Shown here piece after piece: positions 11,426 through 63,013 of a stretch of 64,000 nucleotides of DNA (its first letter is position 1; each line of letters starts with the position of its first letter). The stretch is from NCBI RefSeq assembly GCF_958415495.1, contig NZ_CATZLL010000010.1, forward strand, positions 101,267-165,266, given 5' to 3'. The notes beneath the pieces are model-generated. The model searched no databases, was not told the DNA's origin, and saw only the letters and a program-made list of their open reading frames with translations. Origin of the DNA: Ralstonia flaminis (GTDB lineage: Bacteria; Pseudomonadota; Gammaproteobacteria; Burkholderiales; Burkholderiaceae). The position numbers and the translations under genes were made by a program.

Positions 11426-11445
11426 TCGATGCGTCGTAGACGCGG
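11426..11445 (+). repeat. 22-mer family copy a: TCGATGCGTCGTAGACGCGG
   Basis: Intergenic, between the SbcD-like gene and the 170-aa gene. Confidence 0.6.
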
Positions 11446-11489
11446 GGAAAACCGAGTTTCGACAGCCCCGAAGGCTGTCGGAACGTGGC

Positions 11490-12908
11490 TCACACGTTCA
11501 AGGGTTGGGCGGCATCTGCCGCGAAAAGGTCATCGGTCAGCCAATCCAACGACGATTGGTTCTGAACTTGGTCAGCGTCCTGCCAGGCCGGCTGAACTGT
11601 CACCGGCTCAGCCGTGGCGGACGCCACCGTTTCACCGTTGTCGGCAGCAGACCCGCTCTCCAACGAGGCGACCACTCGATCCGCGATGTCTTGCGGCTCC
11701 AGTGCCTCCAGGATGGACAGGCGCTCCAGCAACGCGTCCGGCTTCACGTCGGTCAAACCGCACCAACGCTGAACCTTCTCACCGAGAGTCGCCGCGCGGC
11801 TGATGCCCTCCGCACGGCTTCTGACGGCAGGCAACACACGCGGATCCAGCTTCAGCTCCGCGGCGCCGGCGAACAGCGTGCGGATGGCCTCGCGGTCGAC
11901 CAGCTGGCGATGCTCCTCGTCAATGGTCCAGCGAACGCGCACGAACTTGTCCTGCGTTTGCTCGGCGATGTTGGCCAGGCGCTCCATATCCGGCGGGCCG
12001 TCGAAATCGACACAGACCGTTTCGCGCGCCGGCGTTTCCACCTGCACCGCTTCGGCCCGGCCCGGCTTGATCTGCCAGCTCAGGTAGCCCTTCTTGCCCT
12101 TTTCGCCGTAGTGGAAGCACCCGATGGAACCGGCGTAACCGACCAGCCGGCCTTCGCGTTCCCACAACTGCATCGCATGGATATGTCCCAGCATGAAGGC
12201 ATCGCACTCGGCTTCGAACAGCGCGCCGAGCGAGAACTCATGGTCGAACCCGGCCATCGGTACGCCGTGCTCGGTGTAGCAGCCATTGACCGTTCCATGC
12301 GACACACCGATGGTTCGGATGCCTTTGGACCGCAACAGCCGATTCACCTTGCCGGCGGCACCCAGGAATACCGTCAGATGCTCGCCCACCGCGGTTGCCG
12401 CATCCATGGCGCCCACGATGCCCGCCAGCACAGCCTTGTTGACGGTCGGAACGCAGGTGAACACAGCAGAGGGTGTGCCCTCCTGCAGCAGCGTTTCCAG
12501 CTCTTCGACGGTGAACAGCGGGCCGGCCGATGGCAGGAACGTCGATCCGACGAGCGCAACCTGGTGAATGCGATCGGCGACGTAGACGGGGTGGCGGCTA
12601 CCGATCAGCCGGAACAGGTCCAGCGTGCCCGGCGGCTCATGCGAGAAGGTCCCCTGCAGCATGAGGACCGGCATGTGGCCCGACAGCGCATGAATGCGCT
12701 CGGCAAGCACCCGCAGTGCCGGCGTGTGCGCGTCGAGCCGATGATCGGTTGCGTCACCGGAAACGATACCCACATGGCAACCACGCGCGACCGCATCTTC
12801 CACGGCGAAACCGAAGCATCGGTCCGCTTCCACCAACCGCTCAGTCGAATAGTGCAGGTCGGAAAAATGACCCACGTGAAGGCTTTCGCCATCGTTGGGC
12901 ATGCTCAC
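11490..12908 (-). CDS. SbcD/Mre11-like calcineurin-type metallophosphoesterase nuclease, 472 aa
   Basis: Phosphoesterase motifs GHFSDLHY (motif I), GDATD (II), GHIH (V). It sits upstream of the SbcC-like ATPase as in sbcDC operons. Confidence 0.7.
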   Translation of the reverse strand: MSMPNDGESLHVGHFSDLHYSTERLVEADRCFGFAVEDAVARGCHVGIVSGDATDHRLDAHTPALRVLAERIHALSGHMPVLMLQGTFSHEPPGTLDLFRLIGSRHPVYVADRIHQVALVGSTFLPSAGPLFTVEELETLLQEGTPSAVFTCVPTVNKAVLAGIVGAMDAATAVGEHLTVFLGAAGKVNRLLRSKGIRTIGVSHGTVNGCYTEHGVPMAGFDHEFSLGALFEAECDAFMLGHIHAMQLWEREGRLVGYAGSIGCFHYGEKGKKGYLSWQIKPGRAEAVQVETPARETVCVDFDGPPDMERLANIAEQTQDKFVRVRWTIDEEHRQLVDREAIRTLFAGAAELKLDPRVLPAVRSRAEGISRAATLGEKVQRWCGLTDVKPDALLERLSILEALEPQDIADRVVASLESGSAADNGETVASATAEPVTVQPAWQDADQVQNQSSLDWLTDDLFAADAAQPLNV

Positions 12909-12942
12909 CTCCTATGGAATAGCCGCAACCAGAACGGTCACA

Positions 12943-12985
12943 GCAACAGAAAAGAAAAACGGCGTCGGGGGAACTCTCGACGCCG
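12943..12985 (-). terminator. Intrinsic terminator between the 425-aa gene and the SbcD-like gene (stem GGCGTCG..CGACGCC plus U-run on the minus strand)
   Basis: Hairpin at 12961-12985. The A/G-rich run AAAAGAAAAAC at 12949-12960 on the plus strand gives TTTTTCTTTT on the minus transcript. Confidence 0.5.
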
Positions 12986-13023
12986 CACGTTGATGCTACG
13001 ACCAGGCGCCAAGCCGGCGCAGG

Positions 13024-14301
13024 TCAAGCTGAGAACAGACTGCCATCGAACTCCGCTTTCACCTTCTCGCGGAAGGCGGGAGGAGACACGAGAGCCACAC
13101 CCATCTCATCGATCAGCGCTCGCATGTCCTGCTCGCGCTTGGTCCAGCCCTTGCCAAACTTGGAGTGTGCGTACACGCGCAAATGCTCGCGCGTTTCCTG
13201 CCCCTCCATGCCCAGCGCCACGATGAGACGTTCAAACTGCTCGGCGATAGAGCCGCCGACAGGCGGCTCGCTCTGCGCTCCTGGCTGACCACCCTCCTCG
13301 CCTGACGTTGGCGTGGCAGTGGCGGCCGGCTCGGTCGTGGGGTGCTCCAGCAGGGCAACCGTCTGCGTACCCACCTCGATCGCAGCACCAATATGGTCAG
13401 CGCCATCCAGCAGCGCGCCCAGGTCGATTTCGGCATCCAGCGTGGTGAGCCATTGTTTCTGGCGTACCGGCAAGCCGTTATCGTCGATGCGGGAAATCTC
13501 CACTTCCTGCTTGGAGAGCCAGAACCTGGTGCCGACCAGACGGCCGCCGCGCGCAATCGCCACAGTCTGCATGGCCGCATGGGCCTTCTGCAGGACGTAG
13601 ATCGAATTGGTGGGCAACTCAATCAAGCCAAGGCCTCGAATGTCAAGGATCGCAAATAGGAAGCTGGCCGTGAGGTTGCAGTGTCGGTCCTGGTATTGCG
13701 GGCAGACCTGCGGGTCGCATACGCCATCGGGAATGGCGTCGTCCTGGCGCAGGATGATGGTGCGGCCGCCGAAGATGCGCTTTGCACGCCTGGCGCGGTC
13801 ACTGCGCTCGACAGGTGCGTACGTCTTGCATTGACGAAGACCATCCGCCCCGTACTGCGACCAGAACACCTTTCCCGTGCCGTTGAATACCGCCAGCTCG
13901 TTGGGGATGTTGCGCAACCAGTCGTCGAACGCAAAGACGACCGGAAAGCGCCAGAGCTTGAGGCCGTCACCGCGATCCTCCCCGTATCGGGTCAGGATCT
14001 CTTCCGCGATGGCAGGATTCGTGAAATCACTGCCACGACACGTGAAGTACGGCGTATTGCGGGGGATGAGGGCGTAGCTCAGGCCGGTTTTTCGTTCGAT
14101 CTCGGAACCGATGTCCTCGAACGAGAGCCCTTGGGCGAGAAGCGCGTCGTGAATCTGGACGGCTTGGGGATTCTCCCTGGCCTTCTTGGTGAGGACCTTG
14201 ATGCCAGGGCGGATCTTTCCAATGACGGGCGGCCGCAGGGGCCGCTCCTCAATTATGCTGCGCGGGGTCGCGAAGCCTGGGTGGGTTGGGATTGCGTGCA
14301 T
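13024..14301 (-). CDS. Hypothetical protein, 425 aa (Cys cluster CDPQVCPQYQDRHC; no recognised domain)
   Basis: Long ORF with coding-like composition and good periodicity. Heads the SbcD/SbcC-like gene string. Confidence 0.55.
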   Translation of the reverse strand: MHAIPTHPGFATPRSIIEERPLRPPVIGKIRPGIKVLTKKARENPQAVQIHDALLAQGLSFEDIGSEIERKTGLSYALIPRNTPYFTCRGSDFTNPAIAEEILTRYGEDRGDGLKLWRFPVVFAFDDWLRNIPNELAVFNGTGKVFWSQYGADGLRQCKTYAPVERSDRARRAKRIFGGRTIILRQDDAIPDGVCDPQVCPQYQDRHCNLTASFLFAILDIRGLGLIELPTNSIYVLQKAHAAMQTVAIARGGRLVGTRFWLSKQEVEISRIDDNGLPVRQKQWLTTLDAEIDLGALLDGADHIGAAIEVGTQTVALLEHPTTEPAATATPTSGEEGGQPGAQSEPPVGGSIAEQFERLIVALGMEGQETREHLRVYAHSKFGKGWTKREQDMRALIDEMGVALVSPPAFREKVKAEFDGSLFSA

Positions 14302-14601: not shown

Positions 14602-14645
14602 AAAAGCAAAAAAAGCCCGCTCCGGTAACCGGAAGCGGGCTTCTT
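14602..14645. terminator. Bidirectional intrinsic terminator (A7-GCCCGCTCCGG-TAAC-CGGAAGCGGGC-TTCTT), immediately followed by a second hairpin GCCACGCCCC-TTTC-GGGGCGTGGC at 14661-14683
   Basis: 11-bp GC-rich stem with a U-run on the minus strand and a weaker one on the plus strand. The second perfect 10-bp stem-loop lies 16 bp downstream. Confidence 0.6.
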
Positions 14646-15053
14646 GTGAGAAACCTGCTGCCACGCCCCTTTCGGGGGCGTGGCTCACAGGGAGCGTCGT
14701 GCCAATGCACTTCGCTCAGGGGGGAGAACGTAAAGTCGTTCTCGTGCAGCATGTTCACGCCGCACAACAACCCATTTAGGACTTTCGTCCACCGCAGGTT
14801 CACGGATCAGTCGACGACAACCGTCCTGCACCCGGAGGCGCTGGAGAGAGAGACCACACATTTCCGGGGCTCAGACGGTGTTCACAGGCATGACCTAGGG
14901 TCATACACACGGGAACGCGTATTACGGCTGATAGATGGGGAGTGTCTGGCTAAGCACTCATCACAAGGGGGGATTTCCACACCAGTTGCCAACTGGTCGG
15001 CGCATGCGCAAGGCACGACTTTTTTAAGGAGATGGACTCGCTAGGGAGTCAGT

Positions 15054-15073
15054 TCGATGCGTCGATGACGCGA
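15054..15073 (+). repeat. 22-mer family copy b: TCGATGCGTCGATGACGCGA
   Basis: Inside the 560-bp non-coding region 14650-15210. Confidence 0.6.
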
Positions 15074-15210
15074 GGAGTGATTGCAGTATGCACCAGACAA
15101 TCCATTAGGAATCCCGGAAAGCTCGCCAAAATAGCGTGGCTTTTGTAAGCAGCCACCGTGTTCACGTGCCGGAAAATTTCGAGTGAGAGATGAGATACCA
15201 CACATGAACC

Positions 15211-15798
15211 ATGGTCGCTGCCCAACACCCCCAGGAACTTGAGGCGCCATTAGGCGCGCCACAGCCGAGTACATCCAACTCCGGACTCAAGCCGATCGCG
15301 CGGCTGGTCGGAGAAAACAGGATTAAGCGGATCGTCCCCGAGACGGCCGCCAGTGCTCAAGTCACCTATTCCTCTGTGTACGTTCGCGATTTCCTGCGCT
15401 CCGCGTACAACTTCTGCTCTTCCAAGTTCTCAGTCGCCAGGTCAGGCAAGACCCGAGCGCTCGACGAAAAATTCCGCGAAGCCGAGCTTTGGTTCGAAAA
15501 AGCCATCGCGTGGCACGCGAACAAAAGCCAAACCCCCATCCCCATCGAGACCGATACCGTTGAGGTCCAGGTCACACATCCGCTGTCTGGGCGCCTCATT
15601 CGCCTCCTGAACCAGCACGACAGGCTGTTCGCGCTCGCCATCTTCGCCCGCGTCGCCAACTCCATATCGGCGCTCGAATTCGAGGGCACGATGAAAGTGG
15701 CCGGCAGCAAGATCGCTTCAATCCACCAGAGCTGCATCCCCGACAACGACCGTTTCGCTGCTGACGGCGCACAAGACGGCGACACCCCTGCGGGATAG
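15211..15798 (+). CDS. Hypothetical protein, 195 aa
   Basis: Track ORF. First plus-strand gene after a ~560-bp non-coding region. Confidence 0.5.
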   Translation: MVAAQHPQELEAPLGAPQPSTSNSGLKPIARLVGENRIKRIVPETAASAQVTYSSVYVRDFLRSAYNFCSSKFSVARSGKTRALDEKFREAELWFEKAIAWHANKSQTPIPIETDTVEVQVTHPLSGRLIRLLNQHDRLFALAIFARVANSISALEFEGTMKVAGSKIASIHQSCIPDNDRFAADGAQDGDTPAG

Positions 15799-15991
15799 CC
15801 AACCACACCACCCAACGCACCCATCGGGATGGCAGCCGGCATGGCGCCATATCCGACCTAGCAGCCAACACGGCGCCCGAAACAGTGGCCGGTACGAAGG
15901 CCAGAGGGGATTGTCGTCCCGCGCGAAGGCATCGCGGACCGAATAAACGACCTCTCAGGCGCCCCCCTCACCCCAACCGCTGGAGAGAGCC

Positions 15992-16672
15992 ATGGATATT
16001 CGCGAAATCTACCGATTGCACCAGCAGTACTCGCACTCCCCTGTCACGATCGACATGGGCACGGCGGAAGATCATGCGGCCGCACCGGCCCTTACCTACG
16101 CCGCCGGCGGCAAGCGCCGGTGGGACCAGCACAAGCCTGCCTTGAAGGTTACTGCGATCTGCTGCGCGTTCATCGTGCTGGCCACGATTGCTGGCCTGGG
16201 GCTTGGGGACCTGTACGCCAAGAAGGGCCGGGCGGGTTCGGCGGCAGCGGCCGGGCCCGAGCAAGTCACGCACGCAGTACAGACGCAAGCGCCGGCCGCC
16301 CCTGCCTCGGCGCCGGAACCTGCAGTCGCCGCAAACCAAGCCACGCCGGCAGCCATCGGAAGCTCGACGCCCTCAGCGCCGGTTGCAGCATCTGTCACGG
16401 CCGCGCCCACTGCACCGGTGGCTCAACCACAGCGAGCCGCCCTTTCCGCAGCCGAGGTGGCGCCCCGCGAGCGCGTTCCTGCGCCGGAGAAGGTCGAAAC
16501 AGCCCCGGCTCAGCCCGCTGCTCGGCGTACCGAGCGCACCGCACCCGATCAAGCCCCTGTTACGCGGCCCGCGCCGGCACCCCAACCAACCGCCACGGCA
16601 CCGCGCGCCGCTACACCACCGGCACGCACCACGGAAGCGAATCGTCCGTCCGGCGACGTGAAGATGTTCTGA
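15992..16672 (+). CDS. Membrane-anchored Pro/Ala-rich protein, 226 aa (one TM helix ~res 50-72, then a low-complexity PA-rich extracytoplasmic tail)
   Basis: RBS ggagagag before the ATG. Hydrophobic segment VTAICCAFIVLATIAGLGLG. The stop is 10 bp before the bactofilin start. Confidence 0.55.
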   Translation: MDIREIYRLHQQYSHSPVTIDMGTAEDHAAAPALTYAAGGKRRWDQHKPALKVTAICCAFIVLATIAGLGLGDLYAKKGRAGSAAAAGPEQVTHAVQTQAPAAPASAPEPAVAANQATPAAIGSSTPSAPVAASVTAAPTAPVAQPQRAALSAAEVAPRERVPAPEKVETAPAQPAARRTERTAPDQAPVTRPAPAPQPTATAPRAATPPARTTEANRPSGDVKMF

Positions 16673-16682
16673 GGAGCAAACC

Positions 16683-17066
16683 ATGAAAGAGCAGATGGAA
16701 ATCAGCATCATCAACGAGGGCATGGCGATTCACGGCAATGTCGACATGGACCATGGCGGCTCCATCCTGGGTCTCGTCAATGGCAACGTCGTCTCGTCAG
16801 GCGGCCTTCTCCACATCGGCCCGGCCGCCGTCATCAAGGGGTCGGTCACCGGGCAGTTCGTATTGATCCAGGGCGCAGTCGAAGGCGACGTCAATGCCCA
16901 GGTCTCTCTCAAGGTGGAAGGTGCGGTCAAAGGCGAGATCCGCTACGCCGGCACGATTCGGCTCGGCCCGCACGCCAACCTGGAGGGTCGCATCACGCGC
17001 ATTCCGCGCCTTTCAGCGGCGGCGCCCGCGCCTCCTGTCGAAGATGCGCTCGAATCGAGTACCTGA
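16683..17066 (+). CDS. Bactofilin (DUF583) polymer-forming cytoskeletal protein, 127 aa
   Basis: Repetitive beta-helical G/V-rich segments (GNVDMDHGGSILGLVNGNVVSSGGLLHIGPAAVIKGSVTG...), typical of bactofilin/CcmA. Confidence 0.65.
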   Translation: MKEQMEISIINEGMAIHGNVDMDHGGSILGLVNGNVVSSGGLLHIGPAAVIKGSVTGQFVLIQGAVEGDVNAQVSLKVEGAVKGEIRYAGTIRLGPHANLEGRITRIPRLSAAAPAPPVEDALESST

Positions 17067-17225
17067 CGCTGGCCTCTCGCCACAGCATGGCGGCAATGCG
17101 AAATCGACACGACGCAAACACCATGAAAATCACCGACGGCGTGATGGATCGACACGAGATGCCGCGCTTCCAGCTCTTTGGCTGTCTGACCAGCCGCACC
17201 AACAAACCCAACTGACAGGTCGATC

Positions 17226-17957
17226 ATGCACCTTGCATCCAGATACGCCGCCCTCATTCCGGTCGCCGCACTCTGCCTTGGCTTGGCCGCCTGCAGCGAC
17301 AAGACAACCGATACAGCCAAGCAGATCAACCGGGAGATCGAGACAACCAAGACCATCTCCGACCCGGTTTCTGCTCTGGCCAAGCTCGATCCGCTGCAGG
17401 GTAGTGGTCGAGATGCCCTGACTGGTTGCGAAGTCGTCTGTGGCGATATTGTGCAAGCCATGGCCAACCTGGACGACGCACGCACGGCGCGGATCAAGCA
17501 AGCGATGGACCGGCTCACGCCGGCAAAGCTGGCGGAATACTTCGAGGGCGACTCGATGCTGCCCCTACGCGACGACATGGCGCCCCGCATTCTCGCGGCG
17601 GCCCAGGCTTCCACGGGTACCGCAGTCAATAGTCGGCTCCTGCGTGTTGCTGGCCAGATCGTGCGCGATGGAAAATACGTGATTCGTAGCTCCGACAAGG
17701 CGGCAGAGTTGTTCGCGCGCGCCTGGTTGGCGGGCGACCCGACCGCAGCGGCGAACAACGCGCAGCTCTACGATTCGTTGCATGACCTGAACAACGCCTA
17801 CCTTTGGGCGTTACGCTGCCGAGCCGAGTGCCATCCTGATGACGGCTACCGCCCGGTCAACGCGGAATCGCTACGCAGCCGCCTATCCACGGCGGCGATC
17901 CGGCAGGCCGAACAGGCGGCACTCGACCCCACCGTGCTGTCTCTCGCTGGGCGCTAG
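17226..17957 (+). CDS. Lipoprotein, 243 aa (lipobox LAAC)
   Basis: Signal peptide with LGLAAC|SDK lipobox. Confidence 0.55.
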   Translation: MHLASRYAALIPVAALCLGLAACSDKTTDTAKQINREIETTKTISDPVSALAKLDPLQGSGRDALTGCEVVCGDIVQAMANLDDARTARIKQAMDRLTPAKLAEYFEGDSMLPLRDDMAPRILAAAQASTGTAVNSRLLRVAGQIVRDGKYVIRSSDKAAELFARAWLAGDPTAAANNAQLYDSLHDLNNAYLWALRCRAECHPDDGYRPVNAESLRSRLSTAAIRQAEQAALDPTVLSLAGR

Positions 17958-17967
17958 GGGAACCACC

Positions 17968-18657
17968 ATGCGCAAGATCTCGACCCTGACCGTTGCCCTC
18001 GTGCTTTTGAGCGCGGCACAGGTCGCAGACGCCGGCCGCGGTGGCGCTGGCGGTAGCTCGACAGCAAGTCGTAGTGCCGGAGGCATTTCGCGGTCTGCCG
18101 GCGCCAGCAAGCCCGGCACCTACCGACCAGCGACCAACAGCCTTGCGCAGACTAGCACGCCAGGCGCGCGGGCGCGCGGCACACGCCGCAGTCTGCTGGA
18201 AGGTGGCGCACAGCCCTCCGCTCATTTGGCGCAGGTTATCCGCGAGCGTGAAAGCAGCGGCCCGGGATGGCTTGGCACCGCGTTCCTGGTGGCGCTGCTC
18301 AGCCGCCACGATCTCTCCGACAGTGACCGCCACTGGCTGCAGGCCAAGATCGACGCGCTCGCCGACGACGAGGCTGATGACCAATCTGGTCTCGAACCCC
18401 CGCTCGTACCCACTGTCACGTTCCTGTATGCCGGCCTGCAGGGCAATTTCATGACCGGTCGCGGGTCTACGATCCGCGTGACTGCGCACGGGACGCCTGT
18501 GAATCCGATTCCGGTGAGTTGCACCATGCCCGAGGCACGCATCAGCACGGAAGGACCCGCTGCGGTGATCGTCTGGGAACCGCGCGCGCCAGCGGCCTAT
18601 GTGCTCACATGCCAAGCGGGCGGGCAGCGCGATCGACGCCTGCTCAAGGCCGGGTAG
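17968..18657 (+). CDS. Secreted protein, ~229 aa (signal peptide MRKISTLTVALVLLSAAQVADA)
   Basis: In-frame internal start of track ORF 17839..18657, chosen because of the canonical signal peptide and a gggga RBS. Confidence 0.5.
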   Translation: MRKISTLTVALVLLSAAQVADAGRGGAGGSSTASRSAGGISRSAGASKPGTYRPATNSLAQTSTPGARARGTRRSLLEGGAQPSAHLAQVIRERESSGPGWLGTAFLVALLSRHDLSDSDRHWLQAKIDALADDEADDQSGLEPPLVPTVTFLYAGLQGNFMTGRGSTIRVTAHGTPVNPIPVSCTMPEARISTEGPAAVIVWEPRAPAAYVLTCQAGGQRDRRLLKAG

Positions 18658-18708
18658 CAACCTGGCGCCGGATGGACTCGTCCTACAAGACACACCGTAC
18701 ATCGCTCC

Positions 18709-19065
18709 GTGCATCGTTTTTTGCTCGGAAAACAGGGCCAGTCGGAATATCGTGTTGAACAAATCATTGGAGACGCCGTGGAACCCGTGAGCACCTTGAT
18801 CGACTGGATTGATTGTCGTGAACGCAAGCCTTCCCCGCCTGAAACACCCTATAAGGAGTACCTGGTCTGGGTGGTGCAGTTGCTACCGAATGCCGCCGGC
18901 GGCATGTACTTGCTGCAATTCAGCCGTGAACGCAACGACTGGATGCCGCTACCGTATGGTCCTGCCGGTGCACCCATGGTCGTCACGCACTACAGTGAAG
19001 TTCTTGACGTATTGGGTTCCCCTGACCCCAAACCCTATGGCCCTCGAGGGCGTGAGTACCTTTGA
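18709..19065 (+). CDS. Hypothetical protein, ~118 aa (start uncertain)
   Basis: Track ORF; followed by a terminator. Confidence 0.3.
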   Translation: MHRFLLGKQGQSEYRVEQIIGDAVEPVSTLIDWIDCRERKPSPPETPYKEYLVWVVQLLPNAAGGMYLLQFSRERNDWMPLPYGPAGAPMVVTHYSEVLDVLGSPDPKPYGPRGREYL

Positions 19066-19644: not shown

Positions 19645-19787
19645 GATGTTGCTCCTCCGGGCACAGGACTAGATATGTCGAGTGCCACAAAAATTTTGAT
19701 CGATTTCGGCACGCGGTCAAATTGGGCGGAACACCCACCAACCGATGCCGGAGCAAAGAAATGCCCCGGGATGGCCCGGGGCAATGG

Positions 19788-21938: not shown

Positions 21939-22014
21939 GGAAATAGCCTCTTGAAATGAAAAGCGGCGAGCCAAAGCTCGCCGCATGGGATGTACTGCTT
22001 GAAAGGGAACCGGT

Positions 22015-23079: not shown

Positions 23080-23175
23080 GGGGTATCACTTGACGAAAAC
23101 CCACGGAATCCACGCCCACAGGGAGTAGACCCCTGTGGGATGGTTGAAGAAACGGCCGATGCTGCCGGCGTTGGA

Positions 23176-23195
23176 TCGATGCGTCGGAGACGCGA
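23176..23195 (+). repeat. 22-mer family copy c: TCGATGCGTCGGAGACGCGA
   Basis: 97 bp upstream of the MoxR gene start. Preceded by hairpin CCCACAGGG-N7-CCCTGTGGG and a GGGATGG box. Confidence 0.6.
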
Positions 23196-26047: not shown

Positions 26048-26077
26048 CAAAAAAAACGCACCCACGAATGGGTGCGT
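26048..26077 (-). terminator. Intrinsic terminator (stem GCACCCA-CGAA-TGGGTGC followed by T9 on the minus strand)
   Basis: A9 run at 26048-26056 then a 7-bp stem at 26057-26077 on the plus strand. Sits at the 3' end of the small-membrane-protein gene string. Confidence 0.6.
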
Positions 26078-26115
26078 CATTTGGTGTGGCTGGCTGGGCC
26101 AGCGTCGAGCAATCG

Positions 26116-27077: not shown

Positions 27078-27809
27078 CGTTGGTGTCCTATGAAAGAGTG
27101 CGGTACACCAACCCCAGCGGGACGGTGTCCCGCGATGGGTATGGTCTGGGCATGCCAGACAAAGCTCGATGCGTCGGTGACGCGATCAAAAGCGCTTGCC
27201 CAACTGTTGGCAGTTGGGCAAGCCCTCTCGGGCTTGCTATGGGATGGAGCGCCGCGGACTAGCGCTGGAGCTGCGGCAGCGGAACACGCGCGGTGACGCG
27301 CAACAGCCCCTTGCGTTCGGGCAGAGGTTTCTCCGGGTGTGCGTCATCGAAGAACACCACCACTCGGTGATCCTGATCGACATACCCGAAGCGAAAGCCC
27401 GGGACGCAGCTGGAACCCGAGAGAGCGTCGCTCGCCTCGCCGGGATTTGGGTACTTCGAGGAAGTGCAGCGGATGAGATTTTGTTCGCTCATGATGGGTC
27501 GGCTAGACGGGCAGTACTGCCGCCTCGCGTTGCAAGAATTGTTGGCCCGCCTCCCGGATCAACTCCGTCGTGATGCCCTGCATGTAGCTGGGAATCAGGA
27601 ACGGAACGATCGAGGGATGCGAACTGAATTCGAAGAAGAAGACGGTGGAACAGCGGCCACGCGTCAGGTGGCTGAAGACTTCCAGCGTCCGGTGATCCCG
27701 ACGATAGACAGCCAGATCGTCTGTGGTTGGGGTGGCCATTGAGTGGAGGGGGAGCAGCGTTGGCAGCGCCAACAGGGCGGTGACCGCCTTGCGGCGGCCA
27801 CCAAGAGGA

Positions 27810-28478
27810 TCAGCGGGTCAGGCGAAAGCCCGCCGCGCTGGAGATCATGTACAGACGCTCCCGAGCCACAAACTGCTGCGTGGCATCCTGGGTAACGACC
27901 AACGTTCGCCCAGCATCCGTGCGAACGATGACTTCTACGCCCGGGCGCTTGTTCAGCACCTGGGAGACTTGCTGCGTGATCACACCGCCCACGGCGCCGG
28001 AGACTGCGCCGGCGACATAGCGGCCATTGCCGTTACCGATGGAACGGCCACCGAGGAATGCGCTGATGCCTGCCCCGATGAGACCGGGCATGCCGCTTGA
28101 TGCGGACATGTAGCCATCGTCACCAGTGATCGTGACATTGCGAACGCGAACAACAGTGACCTGCTCGGCATCACCGCGGCGCATGACTTCCATGCCGCGG
28201 TAGACGTCGGGCGAGCTCTATTGAAGAGCGCATCCAGATGCTAGAACGCAGAAGGCGACGAGAGCAGCGGAGAAAAAGGACTTGAACATGATGGGCCTCG
28301 AAAAAAACGGGCCCATCACACCTACGGGCGTGAGGGCCCGTAAGGGGGGGAGAAGAGATACCAGCCAAAGACTGGTGTGAATCGATGCGCCTAAGACGCG
28401 GAAAGCAAGGGCATCGTAGCAGCTTGCTTTGGCGCCGGAAAGGGGCCGTCGACACGCATTTTGAAAAACTCGCAGCAT
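27810..28478 (-). pseudogene. SlyB/glycine-zipper-type outer-membrane lipoprotein gene interrupted by an in-frame TAG four codons after the lipobox Cys (MFKSFFSAALVAFCVLASGCALQ*SSPDVYRG...)
   Basis: Track ORFs 28218..28478 and 27810..28193 are in the same frame, separated by a single amber codon. The N-terminal part is a lipoprotein signal peptide. The C-terminal part has a glycine-zipper region (GLIGAGISAFLGGRSIGNGNGRYVAGAVSGAVGG). Confidence 0.55.
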
Positions 28479-34038: not shown

Positions 34039-34059
34039 TCGATGCGCGAGAAGCGCGAG
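34039..34059 (+). repeat. Degenerate 22-mer-like copy: TCGATGCGCGAGAAGCGCGAG, 67 bp to the right of palindrome m1
   Basis: Shares the TCGATGCG prefix and GCGCG-N3-GCGCG dyad. Weaker match than the others. Confidence 0.3.
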
Positions 34060-40194: not shown

Positions 40195-40214
40195 TCGATG
40201 CGTCAAAGACGCGG
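40195..40214 (+). repeat. 22-mer family copy g: TCGATGCGTCAAAGACGCGG, 83 bp to the right of palindrome m2, upstream of the ParB/PRTRC operon
   Basis: Read directly. Confidence 0.6.
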
Positions 40215-41883: not shown

Positions 41884-41903
41884 TCGATGCGTCGTAGACG
41901 CGG
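41884..41903 (+). repeat. 22-mer family copy d: TCGATGCGTCGTAGACGCGG (identical to copy a)
   Basis: Intergenic, between 41620 and 41972. Confidence 0.6.
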
Positions 41904-47128: not shown

Positions 47129-47167
47129 ACGACTGACTCCCGGGCGTACACGACATCGGAGGATGGA

Positions 47168-47938: not shown

Positions 47939-48033
47939 CCACCGAGCGGCTGGTGCCATCCCTTGACTTTGTACTGGGCTGGCTACGCTGATCTGAATCC
48001 ATTGCCACCCGAGGCCAGCCGCCTCGCACACAA

Positions 48034-51759: not shown

Positions 51760-52332
51760 ATGTTTGACGATCTGATCGGCTGTGGTCACTGCGGCGGACG
51801 GGCCAGGTTCTTCGCTGGCCGAAAGGAGGCCGTCATTGTGTGTACACAGTGCGGCATTGGCACGCCGCCCGTGCAAATCGGAACCTCCAAAGAAGCGGCC
51901 TACGACGAGCTGGCTTTGATCTGGAACCGACGCGTCGAGTATCGCCCAACCGATCAACACGAGCTGGCCTCGATCGCGCGTCGCCAATTGACGCCGGTGG
52001 ACATCCCAATGCTGCTGGACGCGATCGCCCGCAATGCCATGGATTGGGAAACCCGCGGACCGATATTCGCGGCAATGGCCGCCCAGCTCAGCAGGCCCGC
52101 TTCCCCCGCCGCCGCGGAAGTACCAATGGCCACCGTCCTTGAAGACGCCGGCCGGTATCGCAAGCTCGTGCGATTGGCCAAGGTCATCTACGTCGATGGC
52201 CGTCCCTGGATCCGCTTCGAACCACTCGACGCGTTCGACGCCGAACTGGTTGAAGGCGAAGAAAATGCCTTCGCGCGCATGGACGTATTCGTCGCGCGTG
52301 CGGTGGATGCCCTGGAGCCTCAGCTCGACTAG
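51760..52332 (+). CDS. Lar-family (restriction-alleviation-like) zinc-ribbon protein with C-terminal extension, 190 aa
   Basis: N-terminal CGHCGG ... CTQCG double CxxC spacing, characteristic of Lar-like proteins. Confidence 0.4.
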   Translation: MFDDLIGCGHCGGRARFFAGRKEAVIVCTQCGIGTPPVQIGTSKEAAYDELALIWNRRVEYRPTDQHELASIARRQLTPVDIPMLLDAIARNAMDWETRGPIFAAMAAQLSRPASPAAAEVPMATVLEDAGRYRKLVRLAKVIYVDGRPWIRFEPLDAFDAELVEGEENAFARMDVFVARAVDALEPQLD

Positions 52333-52573
52333 CGCCCCTCGCCACCATGATCGCGCGATCGGCGAGGCGCTGACCTTCCAACTGACGATGGCGTCGACGC
52401 GCGGTAGATGACCGTGCGGTAACGGCCATGCTTTGGCCGGCCGGATCTCGTTCCGTGCCCAGCACTCCCAAACCCTTCACGCAAATCGGCCCGCAGAAGC
52501 TCTCGCTTTCGGGTACTTGACATTGCCCGTTACAAGGCACGATGGATCTAGGTCAACCCGGATCCCAACTGCC

Positions 52574-53491
52574 GTGCTCAAAAAAACCCTGCTCTTCGTT
52601 GCCCTCTCTGCATTCCTCCAGGTCGCCGGCGCCTCTCCCGATCACTGCGGCGCATCGGTCGCGGACGGCGCGCAACCGAAGGTGCTGTCCAGCAAGCACG
52701 CTGGCGCCAGCCACCTGCTCTGCTACCGCGCCTACGCGGTGCTCGTGTCCTCGGCGACCCGGACACCGCTGTGGTCAGCCGAACACCTGACCGCGCAGGC
52801 GGTGAACCAGGCGCGTGAGCTGCCGCGCGAAAGCGATTTCTTCGAAGAGACGTCTTTGCCGGCAACCGCCCGCGCCACCCTGCAGGACTACCACGGTAGC
52901 TCGCACGTCCAGATTGACCGTGGCCACATGTCGCCAAGCGGGGACTTCGGCGACCTGGCATCGCAACAGGAAAGTTTCAGCTTGGCCAACGTCGTCCCGC
53001 AGAACTCGGTCAGCAACCGCCGCATGTGGAGCCACCTGGAGACGTCGACCCGCCGCCTGGTACGGCAGACCGGCGAAGCCTACGTGGTGACCGGCCCAGC
53101 ATTCACGGACGGCAAGGCCCGTTACCTCAACGAACATGTACGGGTACCCGACTATCTGTGGAAAGCGATCTACGTCCCGGGCGTCGGCGCAGCAGCCTAC
53201 ATCGCACCCAACGATGCCACGCCGAAATATGCGGTGGTCAGCATCGCCAAACTCGCACAATTCACCGGCGTCGACCCGTTCCCCCGGCTGCCGGCCGCGA
53301 CGCGCGATCAGGCGATGGAGTTGCCGCCGCCCACCCCGCATCCGCACGAGAAGGCTGGTCGGCAGACCACCCTCAACGATCTCTTGAGCCGCGCGCCGGC
53401 AGCGGAGGTGGAAGATGTCGGACCGACTGCCGTGGCCCGCGTTCCCAACGTATGGCGGCTGGCCCGCGCAATCAGCGCCGCCGTTCGCTAA
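52574..53491 (+). CDS. Secreted DNA/RNA non-specific endonuclease (Serratia NucA / EndoG beta-beta-alpha-Me family), ~305 aa
   Basis: Signal peptide KKTLLFVALSAFLQVAGA, active-site DRGHM motif and a downstream Asn (VVPQNSVSN). GTG start chosen within track ORF 52433..53491. Confidence 0.6.
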   Translation: MLKKTLLFVALSAFLQVAGASPDHCGASVADGAQPKVLSSKHAGASHLLCYRAYAVLVSSATRTPLWSAEHLTAQAVNQARELPRESDFFEETSLPATARATLQDYHGSSHVQIDRGHMSPSGDFGDLASQQESFSLANVVPQNSVSNRRMWSHLETSTRRLVRQTGEAYVVTGPAFTDGKARYLNEHVRVPDYLWKAIYVPGVGAAAYIAPNDATPKYAVVSIAKLAQFTGVDPFPRLPAATRDQAMELPPPTPHPHEKAGRQTTLNDLLSRAPAAEVEDVGPTAVARVPNVWRLARAISAAVR

Positions 53492-53516
53492 GATGGAATC
53501 TAAATGGAGGCATCCC

Positions 53517-53639
53517 ATGAAAGCCCAACAACCGTACGGATCTCCCCAAACCCTGGGCCGTCGTGTCAGCTTCTGGCTGATCGCTGTGGCCGTCGCGCTG
53601 TACCTTTCCTACATCGCCGGGACCAGCCCGCCGTTCTAA
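53517..53639 (+). CDS. Small membrane protein, 40 aa (MKAQQPYGSPQTLGRRVSFWLIAVAVALYLSYIAGTSPPF)
   Basis: GGAGG RBS 6 bp upstream; followed by a terminator. Confidence 0.35.
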   Translation: MKAQQPYGSPQTLGRRVSFWLIAVAVALYLSYIAGTSPPF

Positions 53640-56196: not shown

Positions 56197-56771
56197 GGTC
56201 GGCTGCCGGTTCCCCCGGCCAGGCCCAACTTCCCCGCCTTTAGCGATTCCAATCGATCAGCCCGACGCATGGAAGCAATGCGTTCTGACTGTCCGTCCTG
56301 CAGCGAGCCTGCGCTTGCGCGCTGACTCACCGCTTCGCGGCCTACACACCGGCCGGCATCTTGCGACGCCTTCCTGCCGACACGAGCAAGGCACGCGACT
56401 CCGCGGCCTTCACTCGCCCACAGGCTTTTGCCCTGGTGTGAGATTCTCCTTGCGCATTTCTGGTGCCGGCTGCGCCTACCGGTCGTCACGTTCAGATACG
56501 TGCGGTCACCCTTGCTCGGGTCGCTCTCGTATCCCACCCACAAGCCGAACCATCTCCGCCGCTGTGTATCGGGCCTTGTGATTCGTGCCCAGCCCTCTGG
56601 CTGAACGGGTGCGTCTTATCGCGTTCCATCCACAAACACTGTTCGGTGTTCGGCTTCGGATTTGTACGCACTGCGGTCTAGCTTCACAGCCAGCGCGCTG
56701 ATCGTTTTGGTATCGCGGTGTCCGGTGGCCTCACTCTCCGGCCCCATCCACTTGATTTGCTTGAAAAAAAT

Positions 56772-56789
56772 GCCGGATGACTATCCGGC
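56772..56789 (-). terminator. Hairpin GCCGGATGACTATCCGGC preceded by A7 on the plus strand (U-run on the minus strand); possible terminator/insulator upstream of the integrase promoter region
   Basis: Read directly. Confidence 0.3.
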
Positions 56790-56859
56790 ACGAACATTGG
56801 TGCCCAACAACCTCTTGGTCGCCGGCTCACCCTGAGTTTCCGCGGTCTTCGCGGAGCTA

Positions 56860-56880
56860 TCGATGCGTCGGGGGACGCGT
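56860..56880 (+). repeat. 22-mer family copy e: TCGATGCGTCGGGGGACGCGT (4-nt spacer)
   Basis: Between the integrase gene and the parC iterons. Confidence 0.55.
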
Positions 56881-56994
56881 GTGGTGACTCAAGGATAGGG
56901 CAGCCCAGTGAATTGCGCCGCACGAAAGCTACGCAAGATTGACGGGCTTTCTTCCATCAAACAGCCGGCGCAGCCTCGTACAGTCCCAACGTAA

Positions 56995-57252: not shown

Positions 57253-58251
57253 ATGAAAGCCGCCACCGTTGCCGTCGACGTCGGATACGGAAACACCAAG
57301 TTCGCGTTCCCGATGGGCTCCGAGACCAAGCTGAACATGTTCCCGTCCCTCGCGCCGCAAGCCGCGCCACGCGCGCTTGCCAACCACGGGAACGGCTTCT
57401 TCAAAGCGCGCGACGTAATCACCATTGCCATTGACGGCGTGGAATACGAAGTCGGCCCCGGTGTGTCGCTCTCCTCGGCATATGGTCAGACCGGCCGCAC
57501 GCTGTCGGAGGACTTTGTGACCAAAGACGAGTACGCCGCGCTGCTGGGTGGCGCCCTGCGCCTCGCCCAGGTATCGGAGGTGGGCCAACTGATCCTAGGC
57601 CTGCCCGTTCACACGACCCAGAAATACGCTTCCTACTTGCGCGATCGCTTCACAGGAACGCTTGATTTCGGGGGCGAACCCGTTGAGATCGGATCGGTCA
57701 TCTGCTTGCCGCAACCGCTCGGCGCGCTGGTGACGTTTATGCGCCAACAGAACACCAAGTTCGATGCCGACAACGCGCACCTGGTCATCGATGTCGGCTA
57801 CTTCACCACCGATTGGGTGGTCGCCCAGGGCTTCACGATGGACGACAATCGCAGCGGCGGCGTACCGGGCGGCTCGTCCAAGATCTATCAGCAGATCGCA
57901 TCGCTGATTGAGCAGGACGAGGGTGAGCCTGTCACCGGCATTGAGCGCATCGACAAGTGCCTGCGCGACAAAAAGCCGATGCTGTTCTTCGACAAGGAGA
58001 TCGATCTCACGCCGTATCTGGAAAAAGCGCGCAGCGTCTGCCAGCTCGCCGTCAAGGAAATCCAGACCCGCGTCGGCCGAACCGAAGACATCCGCGCGAT
58101 CATCCTCGCCGGCGGCGGCAGCGCACTCTATGTGCCTGCCATTCGTGCCGCGTTCCCGCGCACCCCCATCCATGCCCTTTCCTCCCCGTGCTTCGCTAAT
58201 GTGAGCGGCTTCTACGACATTGGTAGCACGCGCCCGGTGAAGCAGAAGTAA
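57253..58251 (+). CDS. parM: ParM/StbA-family actin-like ATPase (plasmid segregation), 332 aa
   Basis: N-terminal phosphate-1 motif VAVDVGYGNTKFA and the actin-fold connect/adenosine motifs (IDVGYFTTDW, ILAGGGSALY). Confidence 0.7.
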   Translation: MKAATVAVDVGYGNTKFAFPMGSETKLNMFPSLAPQAAPRALANHGNGFFKARDVITIAIDGVEYEVGPGVSLSSAYGQTGRTLSEDFVTKDEYAALLGGALRLAQVSEVGQLILGLPVHTTQKYASYLRDRFTGTLDFGGEPVEIGSVICLPQPLGALVTFMRQQNTKFDADNAHLVIDVGYFTTDWVVAQGFTMDDNRSGGVPGGSSKIYQQIASLIEQDEGEPVTGIERIDKCLRDKKPMLFFDKEIDLTPYLEKARSVCQLAVKEIQTRVGRTEDIRAIILAGGGSALYVPAIRAAFPRTPIHALSSPCFANVSGFYDIGSTRPVKQK

Positions 58252-58270
58252 TCGGGGGCGCCATTCCACC

Positions 58271-58657
58271 ATGGACAAGCTCTCGATCAAGGTCACGCTG
58301 ACGCCCGTCACCGCGCCGACTCTCTTCCCCTATCTGGCCGGCATCCTGGATTCCAAACAACGCGCGCACGCGCTGCGGCACATGGCAGAACTCGGCTACA
58401 CCGCGTTCCTGGCTAGGCAAGCGGTGCAGACAAATCTGGTGCCGGCACAGGCCATTGCACCGGCTGTCGCCACACTCGTGTCTGCAGCACCAGCGCCGTT
58501 CGCTCTCGCGGAGTCTGTGGCACGGCCAAATCCTTCGCCCGCCCCCGCTTTCGATCCGGCCGCCTTGTCCGAGTCCGACTCGCCTTCGCCTGATGGACTG
58601 CCAACGGCGATGGCCGAGCACCTCGGTGAAGCCATGGCGCGATTCTTTCCAAACTAA
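58271..58657 (+). CDS. ParR/StbB-like putative centromere-binding adaptor, 128 aa
   Basis: Small gene immediately downstream of the ParM-like gene, with an N-terminal basic region and a low-complexity tail. Confidence 0.4.
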   Translation: MDKLSIKVTLTPVTAPTLFPYLAGILDSKQRAHALRHMAELGYTAFLARQAVQTNLVPAQAIAPAVATLVSAAPAPFALAESVARPNPSPAPAFDPAALSESDSPSPDGLPTAMAEHLGEAMARFFPN

Positions 58658-58774
58658 CCCTGCAGCGTAGCGGCGCCAAAGGTTGACATGGCGACAGCCC
58701 GGGTATCCTGAAGACATCAAGCGGTCAAAGGCAACCGCGTTCGTGTAACCTCACACCCTTCAGGAGGCATTGAA

Positions 58775-58912
58775 ATGGCTGACTTCTTCGCTCACCTCAA
58801 CTACGTCAATACCGCCAAATTCTGGTTGATCGCCGGCACCGGCATGGCAATTCTGGAAGCCGCGCGCGTCGTGCTCGGCCGGTTTGCCCAGCGGCCCGTC
58901 GGCCACGAGTAA
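58775..58912 (+). CDS. Small membrane protein, 45 aa (strong AGGAGG RBS)
   Basis: Own translation: MADFFAHLNYVNTAKFWLIAGTGMAILEAARVVLGRFAQRPVGHE. Followed by a terminator. Confidence 0.35.
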   Translation: MADFFAHLNYVNTAKFWLIAGTGMAILEAARVVLGRFAQRPVGHE

Positions 58913-60378: not shown

Positions 60379-60615
60379 GGGATGACTCCAGGTGGAGTGT
60401 TGGTCGATGCCTGAGACAGGCGAGGGAACGCTTGCTCAAAGGACGGCCCGCACGGGCAGACCGTCTTTTCAGCACGACGTCTTGGGGGTGAGATTCGAAG
60501 GGGGATGCGCCAAGCGACCGCCGGCGCAGGAGAGGAAGTTGCCCCTCCAGGTTCCACTTTCGTGGAAGCCCAGAGGCGCTTGAGAAGAACTACAAATGAG
60601 CCCTGTCGATCAGGA

Positions 60616-61934: not shown

Positions 61935-61942
61935 GCGGCCTC

Positions 61943-62371
61943 CTACAACAGCGTGCCGCAGAACGAATGCCTCAGTTCGTCGAGATCCTTCTTCAGCCTA
62001 GGCTGGTTCAGGATGACGTCCTGCAGGACTTCGGGGTTCACCCCGGTCACTGCGCACACGTACAGGTACGGCAGCGCACCGTCCCAGTAGTGAAAGATCC
62101 AGCCGAGCGTCATGCGGTAATCCTCCAAGTCATAGAGGGTTCCGCGCATCCGCGCGCGAAGCATGTCGGCGCAGTCGATAAGGGACTCGGGCATGTTGTC
62201 GCCTCGGCGGCTGTCGCATGCGAGGCTGATGAGAGCGTCGACCATCTTCTCCTTGACCGAGTCGGACCAGTAGGCCGGATCCGGGAGAGGGTCTTGCTTG
62301 TGTTGCGTGGGGGTTACGGCAGCAGCATCCCCGAAGAAATCGAGTTGCCACGCGACTGCATTGGTATTCAT
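61943..62371 (-). CDS. Hypothetical protein, 142 aa
   Basis: Track ORF. Confidence 0.4.
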   Translation of the reverse strand: MNTNAVAWQLDFFGDAAAVTPTQHKQDPLPDPAYWSDSVKEKMVDALISLACDSRRGDNMPESLIDCADMLRARMRGTLYDLEDYRMTLGWIFHYWDGALPYLYVCAVTGVNPEVLQDVILNQPRLKKDLDELRHSFCGTLL

Positions 62372-62468
62372 GGTGACTTCTCCATGGGGCAGCCTCCCCC
62401 CACCTGCTGGCGGGAGAAGACTCCCACCAACAGGGGGTTAAAGGCGCCTTCCAAGGGAAGGCCTGAGG

Positions 62469-62783
62469 TCAAGGGCGCGTGGCGGCCTTGGGGCGAAGCA
62501 TGGGCGTGACAACCGCGGACTTCGCATAGCGTGCCGTGTTGGCAGCCGGGCGCACCGCGGGAGCGGCCTTGTCCGCCTCGGCTTGTGCAGGCTTCGGCGG
62601 GATGATGACGGGTGCAGCAGGGATCGGTGCAGCCTTCTCGCTCTTCAGGCTATGCCAGATGACCGAGAGGAACACGATGCCTACGACAACGGCGATGGCA
62701 TGCGAATGCGCGGCCATGTACAGCACCAGCATCGTGCAGAACAGACGAAAGGGGGTATTGACGAACTTGAGCAGGGATTCCAT
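62469..62783 (-). CDS. Membrane protein, ~105 aa (start MESLLKF; Pro/Ala-rich tail)
   Basis: Internal start of track ORF 62469..62891. Confidence 0.35.
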   Translation of the reverse strand: MESLLKFVNTPFRLFCTMLVLYMAAHSHAIAVVVGIVFLSVIWHSLKSEKAAPIPAAPVIIPPKPAQAEADKAAPAVRPAANTARYAKSAVVTPMLRPKAATRP

Positions 62784-62993
62784 GGTTCTCTCTCCAGAAA
62801 ACGCGGCAAGGGATTTCCTGGCGGCTGCCAGGCGATCATTCGATGCTCGGATGAGCAAGGAATCCCGCAAGCAACAACGTGCTTGCCTCACGCGCGAGCG
62901 TCAGGCAAACAAGCTGAGCCGGGACAAATCAGAAAGGGAGAATGGCGCTGAGCGGCTGTGAAGCCAGATGGAGTTGCTCCATCAAGCGCAAGT

Positions 62994-63013
62994 TCGATGC
63001 GTCAACGACGCGG
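62994..63013 (+). repeat. 22-mer family copy f: TCGATGCGTCAACGACGCGG
   Basis: Divergent intergenic region between 62783 and 63530. Confidence 0.6.

Follow-up and report, generated by a model that had tools for sequence, protein, structure and literature searches.

A repeated same-strand box of pMOL28/pHG1-family megaplasmids is a transcribed 5'-leader stem-loop and appears to be an undescribed cis-acting RNA motif

The DNA analyzed here, referred to as the window, is a stretch of 64,000 nucleotides from Ralstonia flaminis (contig NZ_CATZLL010000010.1). It is 100% identical to positions 259416-323415 of the Ralstonia pickettii plasmid pRp12D0 (NZ_CP104383.1) and near-identical to plasmids of Ralstonia sp. 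RRA.1 and R. insidiosa. Positions 1-8400 constitute cargo or junction DNA, with genes for a P-type ATPase, cadR, an FTR1 permease, an integrase and a Tn3-family transposase, and at approximately 8.5 kb, with an SbcC-like gene, begins a backbone that carries many copies of a short intergenic box. The genes downstream are encoded on the minus strand, and in this sense direction the box reads C-GCGUC-N3-5-GACGC-AUCGA(CC). The units headed by it are SbcCD-like, MoxR/VWA, small-membrane-protein, SPFH, PRTRC/ParB, methylase, integrase-region and SSB/primase units. An original prediction considered the box a binding site for a regulator encoded on the element, which would tie together transfer, maintenance and cargo operons. 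The results outlined below identify it as the DNA image of a transcribed, base-paired stem-loop in 5' leaders, which in most copies stands in fixed register with strong sigma-70 promoters.

Both strands of the window were searched with the pattern TCGATGCGTC-N3-GACGCGR, allowing up to three mismatches, and the outcome was compared with 100 shuffles. Nine matches were obtained, every time on the plus strand, where 1.23 were expected, and none of the 100 shuffles reached this number. The bare dyad GCGTC-N3-GACGC matched eight times in the window, against an expectation of 0.3. Exact copies lie at 11426, 15054, 23176, 27166, 40195, 41884 and 62994, and a copy with one mismatch at 28382; the match at 17553, which has three mismatches and lies inside a coding sequence, was rejected as a chance hit. 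A covariance model made from 80 non-identical box instances and run without filters detects 11 copies in the window at E <= 3e-4, which share one orientation (none lies on the other strand), and the next-best match scores 10.8 bits. The repeated same-strand box is therefore real, and the seven copies plus a degenerate one that had been proposed understated it: the copies on that list were confirmed, and those at 27166, 28382 and 60404 had been overlooked. The 11 copies are as follows, with the -10 hexamers and start sites discussed further below.

11426..11445, minus strand: box copy 1, CCGCGTC-TAC-GACGC-ATCGA on the sense strand; 37.7 bits; no -10 at the canonical spacing; intercistronic, between the gene for an SbcD-like exonuclease and the 170-aa/SbcC-like genes
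15054..15073, minus strand: box copy 2; -10 CATACT at 15085-15090, predicted start at about 15078; heads the long sbcD RNA leader
23176..23195, minus strand: box copy 3; 39.9 bits; no canonical -10; upstream of a MoxR-like ATPase/VWA operon
27166..27185, minus strand: box copy 4; no -10; adjoins the U-tract of a 13-bp intrinsic terminator at 27194-27223
28382..28401, minus strand: box copy 5, stem GCGUC/GGCGC, with a U.G pair on the sense strand that equals C.A on the other strand; -10 TACGAT at 28413-28418, predicted start at about 28406; heads a glycine-zipper (slyB-like) operon
34039..34058, minus strand: box copy 6, degenerate, with a 4-bp stem, C-GCGC-UUCUC-GCGC-AUCGA (plus strand TCGAT-GCGC-GAGAA-GCGC-GA); 19.9 bits, E 3e-4, although not among the instances used to build the model; -10 TATCCT at 34070-34075, predicted start at 34063
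40195..40214, minus strand: box copy 7; -10 TATTCT at 40226-40231, predicted start at about 40219; heads the PRTRC ParB operon with a 5' untranslated region of about 169 nt
41884..41903, minus strand: box copy 8; -10 TATTCT at 41915-41920, predicted start at about 41908; heads an operon of a 124-aa protein and an N6-methylase
56860..56879, minus strand: box copy 9, with a 4-nt loop; -10 TATCCT at 56892-56897, predicted start at about 56885; heads a candidate small RNA (sRNA) of about 123 nt
60404..60422, minus strand: box copy 10, with the alternative, fully complementary stem C-GCCUG-UCU-CAGGC-AUCGA (plus strand TCGAT-GCCTG-AGA-CAGGC-G); 33.4 bits; no -10; 26 nt upstream of the start codon of a primase-helicase zinc-binding gene; orthologues in pMOL28, pBMC401 and four further related loci
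62994..63013, minus strand: box copy 11; -35 TTGCGC, -10 TAAAGT at 63025-63030, predicted start at about 63018; heads an operon leading to SSB

All copies are intergenic, as had been proposed, and each is situated upstream of one or more minus-strand genes. The plus-strand units of the block (15211-19065, 42633-53639 and 57253-58912) lack the box in either orientation, and about 80% of the minus-strand units carry it, which indicates a regulon specific for strand or direction. A weak twelfth box-like element, GCUC-AUCC-GAGC-AUCGA with a 4-bp stem (62837-62864, minus strand; 10.8 bits), is found within the leader of the 62994 unit and is kept at the same place in pMOL28. The idea that the box is a small open reading frame on the plus strand, started from AGATGG as a Shine-Dalgarno sequence plus ATG, was discarded: the frame relative to the box differs from copy to copy, and it stops in the loop.

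The distribution of the box is narrow. In the other 272 kb of the 336-kb plasmid, no copy was detected by a relaxed "hairpin + ATYGA" scan or by the covariance model, and the whole-plasmid scan found none at the genes for the type IV secretion system, the type IV pilus, the relaxase, repB/parAB or the metal-resistance cargo. The proposed link between transfer, maintenance and cargo operons is thus not borne out. Since the 11 copies are confined to 52 kb and one strand, they do not display the dispersal of REP/BIME-type repeats either. Among the matches listed for the exact box in species-representative genomes, multi-copy contigs occur only in Cupriavidus, Paraburkholderia, Caballeronia and Burkholderia, and the lone matches in other high-GC phyla amount to the chance number for 16 specified bases in 596 Gb. 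A generic repeat of host genomes, a finding that would have spoken against the original prediction, is accordingly not what the box represents. The syntenic regions of pHG1, pBMC401 and pMOL28 were fetched by gene homology or name, independently of the box, and contain six, about nine and about nine copies, respectively, all in the sense of the PRTRC genes. The box is limited to the PRTRC/establishment-maintenance block of pMOL28/pHG1-family megaplasmids, which reside in Ralstonia, Cupriavidus, Paraburkholderia, Caballeronia and Burkholderia. In a scan of the whole window with Rfam 15, at gathering thresholds and at E values up to 5, none of the box copies was matched by a model; the scan returned the sbcD RNA and weak chance matches, all of them away from the boxes. 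Literature searches on PRTRC, the sbcD RNA, motifs of the pMOL28/pHG1 backbone and the literal sequence likewise yielded no description, and this megaplasmid family thus appears to possess a cis-acting RNA motif that had not been described.

The first line of evidence for an RNA element comes from the variation of the dyad. Upstream of the primase gene of at least six elements, the stem GCGUC/GACGC is replaced by GCCUG/CAGGC. Further stems are GCUCG/CGAGC in pBMC401, GCGCC/GGCGC in pMOL28 and the related loci L018 and L100, GCGUG/CACGC in L018, and GCGC-N4/5-GCGC at the sites orthologous to window position 34039 in four plasmids, including pHG1, pMOL28 and pBMC401. Such alternative stems sometimes occur within one and the same plasmid. 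Loops measure 3, 4 or 5 nt and come in 32 different sequences, and the alignment contains changes on both sides of three of the five stem pairs, occupying 17 cells compared to 1.4 in shuffles. The pairing also has a strand: in five syntenic loci a perfect 5-bp stem precedes 35 of 117 GCATYGA sites in the sense direction and 3 of 84 on the other strand. The sole imperfect pairs in clear copies are U.G pairs on the sense strand (at 28382 in the window and in GCGUU/GACGC of pBMC401), and the reverse case does not occur. Near-invariant are the first two stem pairs (G-C and C-G), the preceding C (72/78) and the 3' AUCGA (76/78). Spacing that varies and arms that compensate each other are expected of a hairpin, and a dimeric DNA-binding protein tolerates neither; together with the wobble pairs restricted to the sense strand, they speak against a dyad read by protein in DNA and point to a base-paired hairpin.

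The second line of evidence is the register of the box with promoters. When 63 instances are aligned at the box, T prevails at -18 (42/63), A at -17 (36/63) and T at -13 (35/63), corresponding to a TAnnnT -10 hexamer that ends 12 nt before the C preceding the stem, and T/G are enriched at the position expected for the TTG of a -35 element. TAnnnT at precisely this spacing is present in 27 of the 63 instances and in 29 of the 74 of a larger set. In the window, seven of the 11 copies (15054, 28382, 34039, 40195, 41884, 56860 and 62994) have the hexamer exactly 13 nt upstream of the stem, a register that predicts transcription to start about 7 nt before the stem. The primary 5' ends of C. metallidurans CH34 have been determined by Cappable-seq (Grosse et al. 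2022; Table S1 of PMC9045368). In this map, all six pMOL28 boxes with a -10 have a start site exactly 7 nt upstream of the first stem G, and no start site lies at that position for the three pMOL28 boxes that lack a -10; the pMOL28 orthologue of box copy 3 is without a start site. The six start sites (PMC9045368) are:

TSS_137004-5, Rmet_6281: score 8047, rank 28 of 5,763; orthologue of box copy 11 (62994)
TSS_90669-5, parB2: score 7214, rank 34 of 5,763; orthologue of box copy 7 (40195)
TSS_83384-5, slyB: score 6326, rank 39 of 5,763; orthologue of box copy 5 (28382)
TSS_84558-5, Rmet_6234: score 2894, rank 102 of 5,763
TSS_130858-5, Rmet_6399: score 398, rank 899 of 5,763; orthologue of box copy 9 (56860)
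TSS_75119-5, Rmet_6222: score 301, rank 1119 of 5,763; orthologue of box copy 2 (15054)

The same study classed the six promoters as RpoD-dependent, five as strong and one as medium, with TTGC.. at -35 (PMC9045368). The conserved position of TAnnnT and the measured primary start sites of pMOL28 are those of sigma-70 (RpoD) promoters. On pMOL28 the stem is positions +8 to +20 and AUCGA positions +21 to +25 of real primary transcripts; for the window itself, we infer the same +8 register by orthology with pMOL28. Given start sites 7 nt before the stem, the box belongs to the transcribed leader and is located neither upstream of nor within the promoter. One half of the original prediction is supported, namely that the box is a shared and selected element tied to promoters, as in a regulon; the other half, the position of a classical operator or activator site, is not. 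Moreover, a promoter does not accompany every copy. The four copies without a canonical -10 (11426, 23176, 27166 and 60404) occupy intercistronic gaps of co-directional arrays, in some cases directly after a terminator; an operator for a promoter repressor would have no reason to be there, and an RNA tag for each downstream unit fits.

Upstream of the -10, a second promoter motif, approximately tGAWWTcGCGAGCTTTCcgg, is present at about 15114-15133 (minus strand), with a weaker copy at about 56921-56940 (minus strand). It ends 42-44 nt upstream of the stem and some 23-24 nt upstream of the -10, and the two halves of a TTTC..CTTTC direct repeat within it are spaced by one helical turn. About 26 of 74 box promoters have this second motif, which recurs at twelve listed sites among many related loci. 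For the upstream GCGAGCTTTC motif, a loose two-mismatch scan was replaced by a position matrix. The second motif may be an activator or UP-type site. The box-bearing plasmids encode FlhD- and FlhC-family regulators.

Downstream of the box, the leaders share further features. In 60 of 74 instances, 2-7 nt separate AUCGA from a second hairpin of 5-11 bp, the sequence of which is not conserved. Next comes a pyrimidine tract that is poor in G and has the consensus CAUYYYYU (T 37%, C 35%, G 10%). The (G)GGATGG and AGATGG boxes that had been pointed out next to several copies are real, and they represent the complement of this tract (CCAUCY). The second hairpins of the window are:

15035-15050, minus strand: second hairpin
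23155-23169, minus strand: second hairpin
27144-27160, minus strand: second hairpin
28360..28376, minus strand: second hairpin, then the pyrimidine-rich tract AUCUCUUCUCCC
34021-34034, minus strand: second hairpin
40167-40181, minus strand: second hairpin
41863-41877, minus strand: second hairpin
56839-56855, minus strand: second hairpin
60385-60398, minus strand: second hairpin
62967-62983, minus strand: second hairpin

The second hairpin was rejected as a general intrinsic terminator, as at least five U in 10 nt follow in only 18 of 60 tails and a minority is terminator-like. An RNA made from the plus strand was considered as well: the 45 nt after the box fold with -12.4 kcal/mol in the antisense and -11.1 kcal/mol in the sense direction, which was judged an effect of composition. 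Within the second hairpins, G.T and A.C count 8 vs 6, so that no strand preference can be read from them; the start sites, the wobble pairs of the box and the consensus folds of the leaders favour the sense strand.

Further along, two types of leader fold over the translation start. In five slyB-type leaders (about 28194-28330 of the window, minus strand), CAUG..GGCC pairs with GAGGCC..AUCAUG and thereby buries the Shine-Dalgarno sequence and the start codon. In eight ParB-type leaders (about 40054-40119, minus strand), GGUUCCC pairs with GGAGAACC, which includes the Shine-Dalgarno sequence, and an upstream GGGAACC can compete for a partner in this pairing. The hairpins of both types display covariation and G.U pairs on the sense strand. 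As judged from the sequences, the competing GGGAACC, GGUUCCC and GGAGAACC segments suggest a translational switch or a pseudoknot.

Two box-headed transcripts comprise additional RNA elements, the positions of which are:

14651..14798, minus strand: sbcD RNA motif (RF01757), 139.7 bits, about 280 nt into the transcript from box copy 2; an element separate from the box
14610-14645, minus strand: intrinsic terminator just before the first gene (the DUF7696 gene) of the 15054 unit
56764..56885, minus strand: candidate sRNA of about 123 nt, comprising predicted start, box, second hairpin, third hairpin and terminator
56764-56789, minus strand: terminator of the candidate sRNA, GCCGGAUAGUCAUCCGGC+AU7

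The leader that starts at box 15054 is about 500 nt long and ends in the terminator at 14610-14645, and the last hairpin of the sbcD motif is the intrinsic terminator before the DUF7696 gene. This suggests that the sbcD motif functions as a leader or attenuator element and not as a free-standing sRNA. Its 3' part weakly matches the Burkholderia sRNA BcKCsr2 (30.7 bits, below threshold). The candidate sRNA headed by box 56860 has a predicted fold of -52.1 kcal/mol (z-score -3.8), and its layout, i.e. a box 5', a terminator at +100 to +128 and a variable middle, recurs in seven other elements, including pMOL28, where the start site TSS_130858-5 was measured. The candidate sRNA lies 0.7 kb upstream of an integrase-domain gene. 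Right after its terminator, at about 56715-56763 (minus strand), follows DNA conserved across genera, CAATCAAATCAAGTGGAC..GTGTCGGATAGTGAGGACACC, with a GTGTC..GACAC dyad; this stretch could be a recombinase/integrase site or another promoter. Additional strong intrinsic terminators with 9-13-bp stems and a T-run (19762-19783, 21963-21984, 26055-26078 and 27194-27223, minus strand) lie between co-directional genes within box-headed arrays. Between 11 and 29 kb, 23 terminator-like sites were counted, compared to 14.1 +/- 3.5 in shuffles, and 21 of the 23 are on the minus strand.

How might a stem-loop at the 5' end of these transcripts work? A loop and inner pairs that are free to vary, combined with a fixed stem base and AUCGA, lead us to infer recognition by a specific partner at the base of the hairpin. 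The element would then act at the RNA level, where about a dozen leaders and one candidate sRNA share it as a tag, and the hairpin base plus AUCGA would be the docking site of a trans-acting factor specific for sequence and structure. This factor would most likely be a protein, possibly encoded on the plasmid, and would co-ordinately set events after transcription initiation across the tagged leaders. Candidate outputs are the stability of the 5' end, read-through of hairpins and terminator-like elements, or the opening of sequestered ribosome-binding sites. Start sites that score so highly on a plasmid of low copy number also fit control after initiation better than a promoter shut by a repressor. 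Whether the leader hairpin indeed carries such a docking site and governs steps after initiation is, in our judgement, an even call.

Several observations weigh against this interpretation and have to be taken into account. About 80% of copies retain the stem GCGUC/GACGC, which also holds for plasmids fetched without reference to the box, and such retention would likewise suit a DNA-binding protein. The 99.8% pairing on the alignment holds by construction, because instances were collected by requiring pairing, and the share of the canonical stem is inflated, because most instances stem from the exact-pattern scan; informative for pairing are only the existence of compensated variants and the strand asymmetry. 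The single-stranded 5' tail of 7 nt is longer than expected for a classical 5' stabilizer hairpin. Finally, the partner was not found: about 45 neighbouring proteins were compared with Pfam, NCBIfam and PHROGs, and only domains that were already obvious came up. Two small, very basic proteins without a family match are encoded nearby, one at 26697-27077 (minus strand; RTRRQRRR, isoelectric point 11.3) directly downstream of box 27166, the other at 42633-43067 (plus strand; SRREAAFARKQARERAR, isoelectric point 11.2) as the first gene of a box-less plus-strand operon. To regard either of these arginine-rich proteins as the partner is speculative. A more specific proposal, namely that a dedicated RNA-binding regulator of the pMOL28/pHG1 family binds the hairpin base plus AUCGA on some ten leaders and switches the PRTRC/establishment block after initiation through antitermination, protection of the 5' end or exposure of masked ribosome-binding sites, the box-headed sRNA being a decoy or feedback device, is put forward as tentative and rather doubtful.

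The missing partner is one reason to consider an element that needs no factor. According to this explanation, the hairpin would stabilize or insulate the 5' end, assist promoter escape or simply provide a standard 5' context in which the leaders fold. A hairpin fixed at +8 behind very strong promoters, a covarying stem with a free loop and G-poor single-stranded flanks would all be in line with such a role. But structure as such does not require a near-invariant AUCGA, invariant closing pairs or the preceding C, and the element recurs in gaps that lack a promoter. In the ompA-type stabilizer of E. coli, the hairpin lies within about 0-4 nt of the 5' end, and the tail of 7 nt, found at all six measured start sites, is too long for this rule of 5' protection. 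Overall, a purely structural element seems unlikely.

Even less probable is an operator in double-stranded DNA, in which a plasmid repressor would bind the 13-bp palindrome plus ATCGA at +8 to +25 and block promoter clearance, in a regulon of the IncP/IncN kind. Repeated operators, such as those of KorA/KorB and ArdK, are the norm on large plasmids, and candidates for the repressor would be the KorB-like PRTRC ParB-family protein or an unrecognized small DNA-binding protein. The site is palindromic, its spacing to the -10 is fixed, its sequence is retained as noted above, and a ParB/HTH protein is in fact encoded within the block (PRTRC ParB, 38386-40050, minus strand, with ParB_N and HTH_ParB domains), binding of which to the box is hypothetical. 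However, the ParB/KorB-type operator is a palindrome of fixed sequence and spacing, whereas the half-sites of the box change in compensation and their spacers vary from 3 to 5 bp, even within one plasmid. Neither the asymmetric AUCGA nor the strictly uniform orientation agrees with an operator, the asymmetry between G.U and C.A favours one strand, and promoter-less copies occur right behind terminators. In addition, the promoters in question belong to the cell's most active start sites under steady-state conditions.

A processive antitermination system akin to nut, in which the nascent hairpin recruits a factor to RNA polymerase, represents a special case of the interpretation favoured here. 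It would account for a promoter-proximal RNA hairpin, for the terminator-like hairpins in leaders, for the strong terminators within co-directional arrays (27194-27223, 21963-21984, 19762-19783 and 14610-14645) and for boxes that recur right after terminators, and small arginine-rich proteins are encoded nearby. Yet the loop, which is read by lambda-N-type peptides, is not conserved, few tails of the second hairpin (18/60) are U-rich, and no protein of the NusG, Q or N families was detected among the neighbouring proteins. A boxA, the adjacent site for NusB/NusE, is absent as well: the best matches to GCUCUUUAACAA in the leaders average 6.5 of 12 positions, compared to 6.8 in control regions and 6.3 in shuffles, and CUCUU is found in only 12 of 74 box leaders. 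A boxA next to the second hairpin (CAUCUCUUGAAC vs GCUCUUUAAC) is attractive by eye but no better than controls. With its unconserved loop and no boxA, the box is not a nut site, and nut-like antitermination by this hairpin is poorly probable.

Hardly credible, and left unsupported as the DNA-processing alternative of the original prediction, is a site in single-stranded DNA for conjugation or replication (a signal for initiation by primase, or a hairpin that a relaxase or recombinase would use on the strand being transferred): the single orientation over 52 kb, the hairpin with a conserved single-stranded flank and the SSB, primase-like protein and anti-restriction genes typical of establishment regions would suit it, but the copies track transcription units, the box is tied to transcription by its exact register with the -10 and with primary start sites that were measured in cells growing without conjugation, and in place of a nick site or a long ssi/Frpo-type hairpin, which would rebuild the -35/-10 in single-stranded DNA, there are -10/-35 elements in ordinary duplex upstream of a 13-nt hairpin.

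Returning to the leader hairpin as a tag, one element of 20 nt marks about ten units, some of which have start sites among the strongest in the cell. Megaplasmids of the pMOL28/pHG1/pRALTA type confer metal resistance, hydrogen lithoautotrophy or symbiosis in Cupriavidus, Ralstonia, Paraburkholderia and Burkholderia, and the box offers a mutable handle on how their backbone, with its enigmatic PRTRC cassette, is regulated, a subject that is barely understood. It also adds a candidate RNA motif beside the sbcD RNA, which is now placed inside a defined transcript. If a dedicated RNA-binding regulator as outlined above were true, the outcome would be an RNA regulon across the plasmid, of which no example is known to have been described for conjugative megaplasmids, and a trans-acting partner, should it exist, would provide a post-transcriptional counterpart of the global plasmid regulons of the KorB/ArdK type.

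Comparison with known systems reveals partial resemblances. The IncP regulons (KorB with its operator OB, KorA with OA) and the IncN CUP/ArdK regulon likewise consist of about ten promoter-associated repeats that tie together operons for maintenance and establishment on a single large plasmid, where most genes run in one direction. However, OB is a fixed 13-bp palindrome of double-stranded DNA at variable positions, and the box is a covarying dyad inside the transcript; CUP elements are DNA repeats of 100-400 bp, whereas box copies share only about 20 nt plus the TAnnnT skeleton and differ in the sequence of their flanks and second hairpins. The ops/JUMPStart element, which recruits RfaH to long operons including F tra, is similarly a short leader signal of one orientation that serves many unrelated operons after initiation. 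Yet ops is 12 nt long and is read in the non-template DNA of a paused complex at variable distance from the start; the box combines a covarying hairpin of 5 bp with AUCGA, in a position fixed at +8, and no NusG/RfaH paralogue was detected among the proteins encoded nearby. The lambda-type nut site shares with the box a promoter-proximal RNA hairpin and an adjacent conserved single-stranded segment, and both are transcribed soon after the promoter and ahead of terminators. What is conserved and recognized in boxB is the loop, in contrast to the free loop and conserved stem base and 3' flank of the box, and a replicon has two nut sites compared to about 11 boxes. The closest companion is the sbcD RNA, which occurs on the same plasmids, is likewise a candidate cis-regulatory RNA of mobile DNA in Burkholderiales, and in the window shares one transcript with a box; it forms a multi-stem structure of 155 nt that is present once per element, whereas the box is a 20-nt module without an Rfam match that is repeated about ten times.

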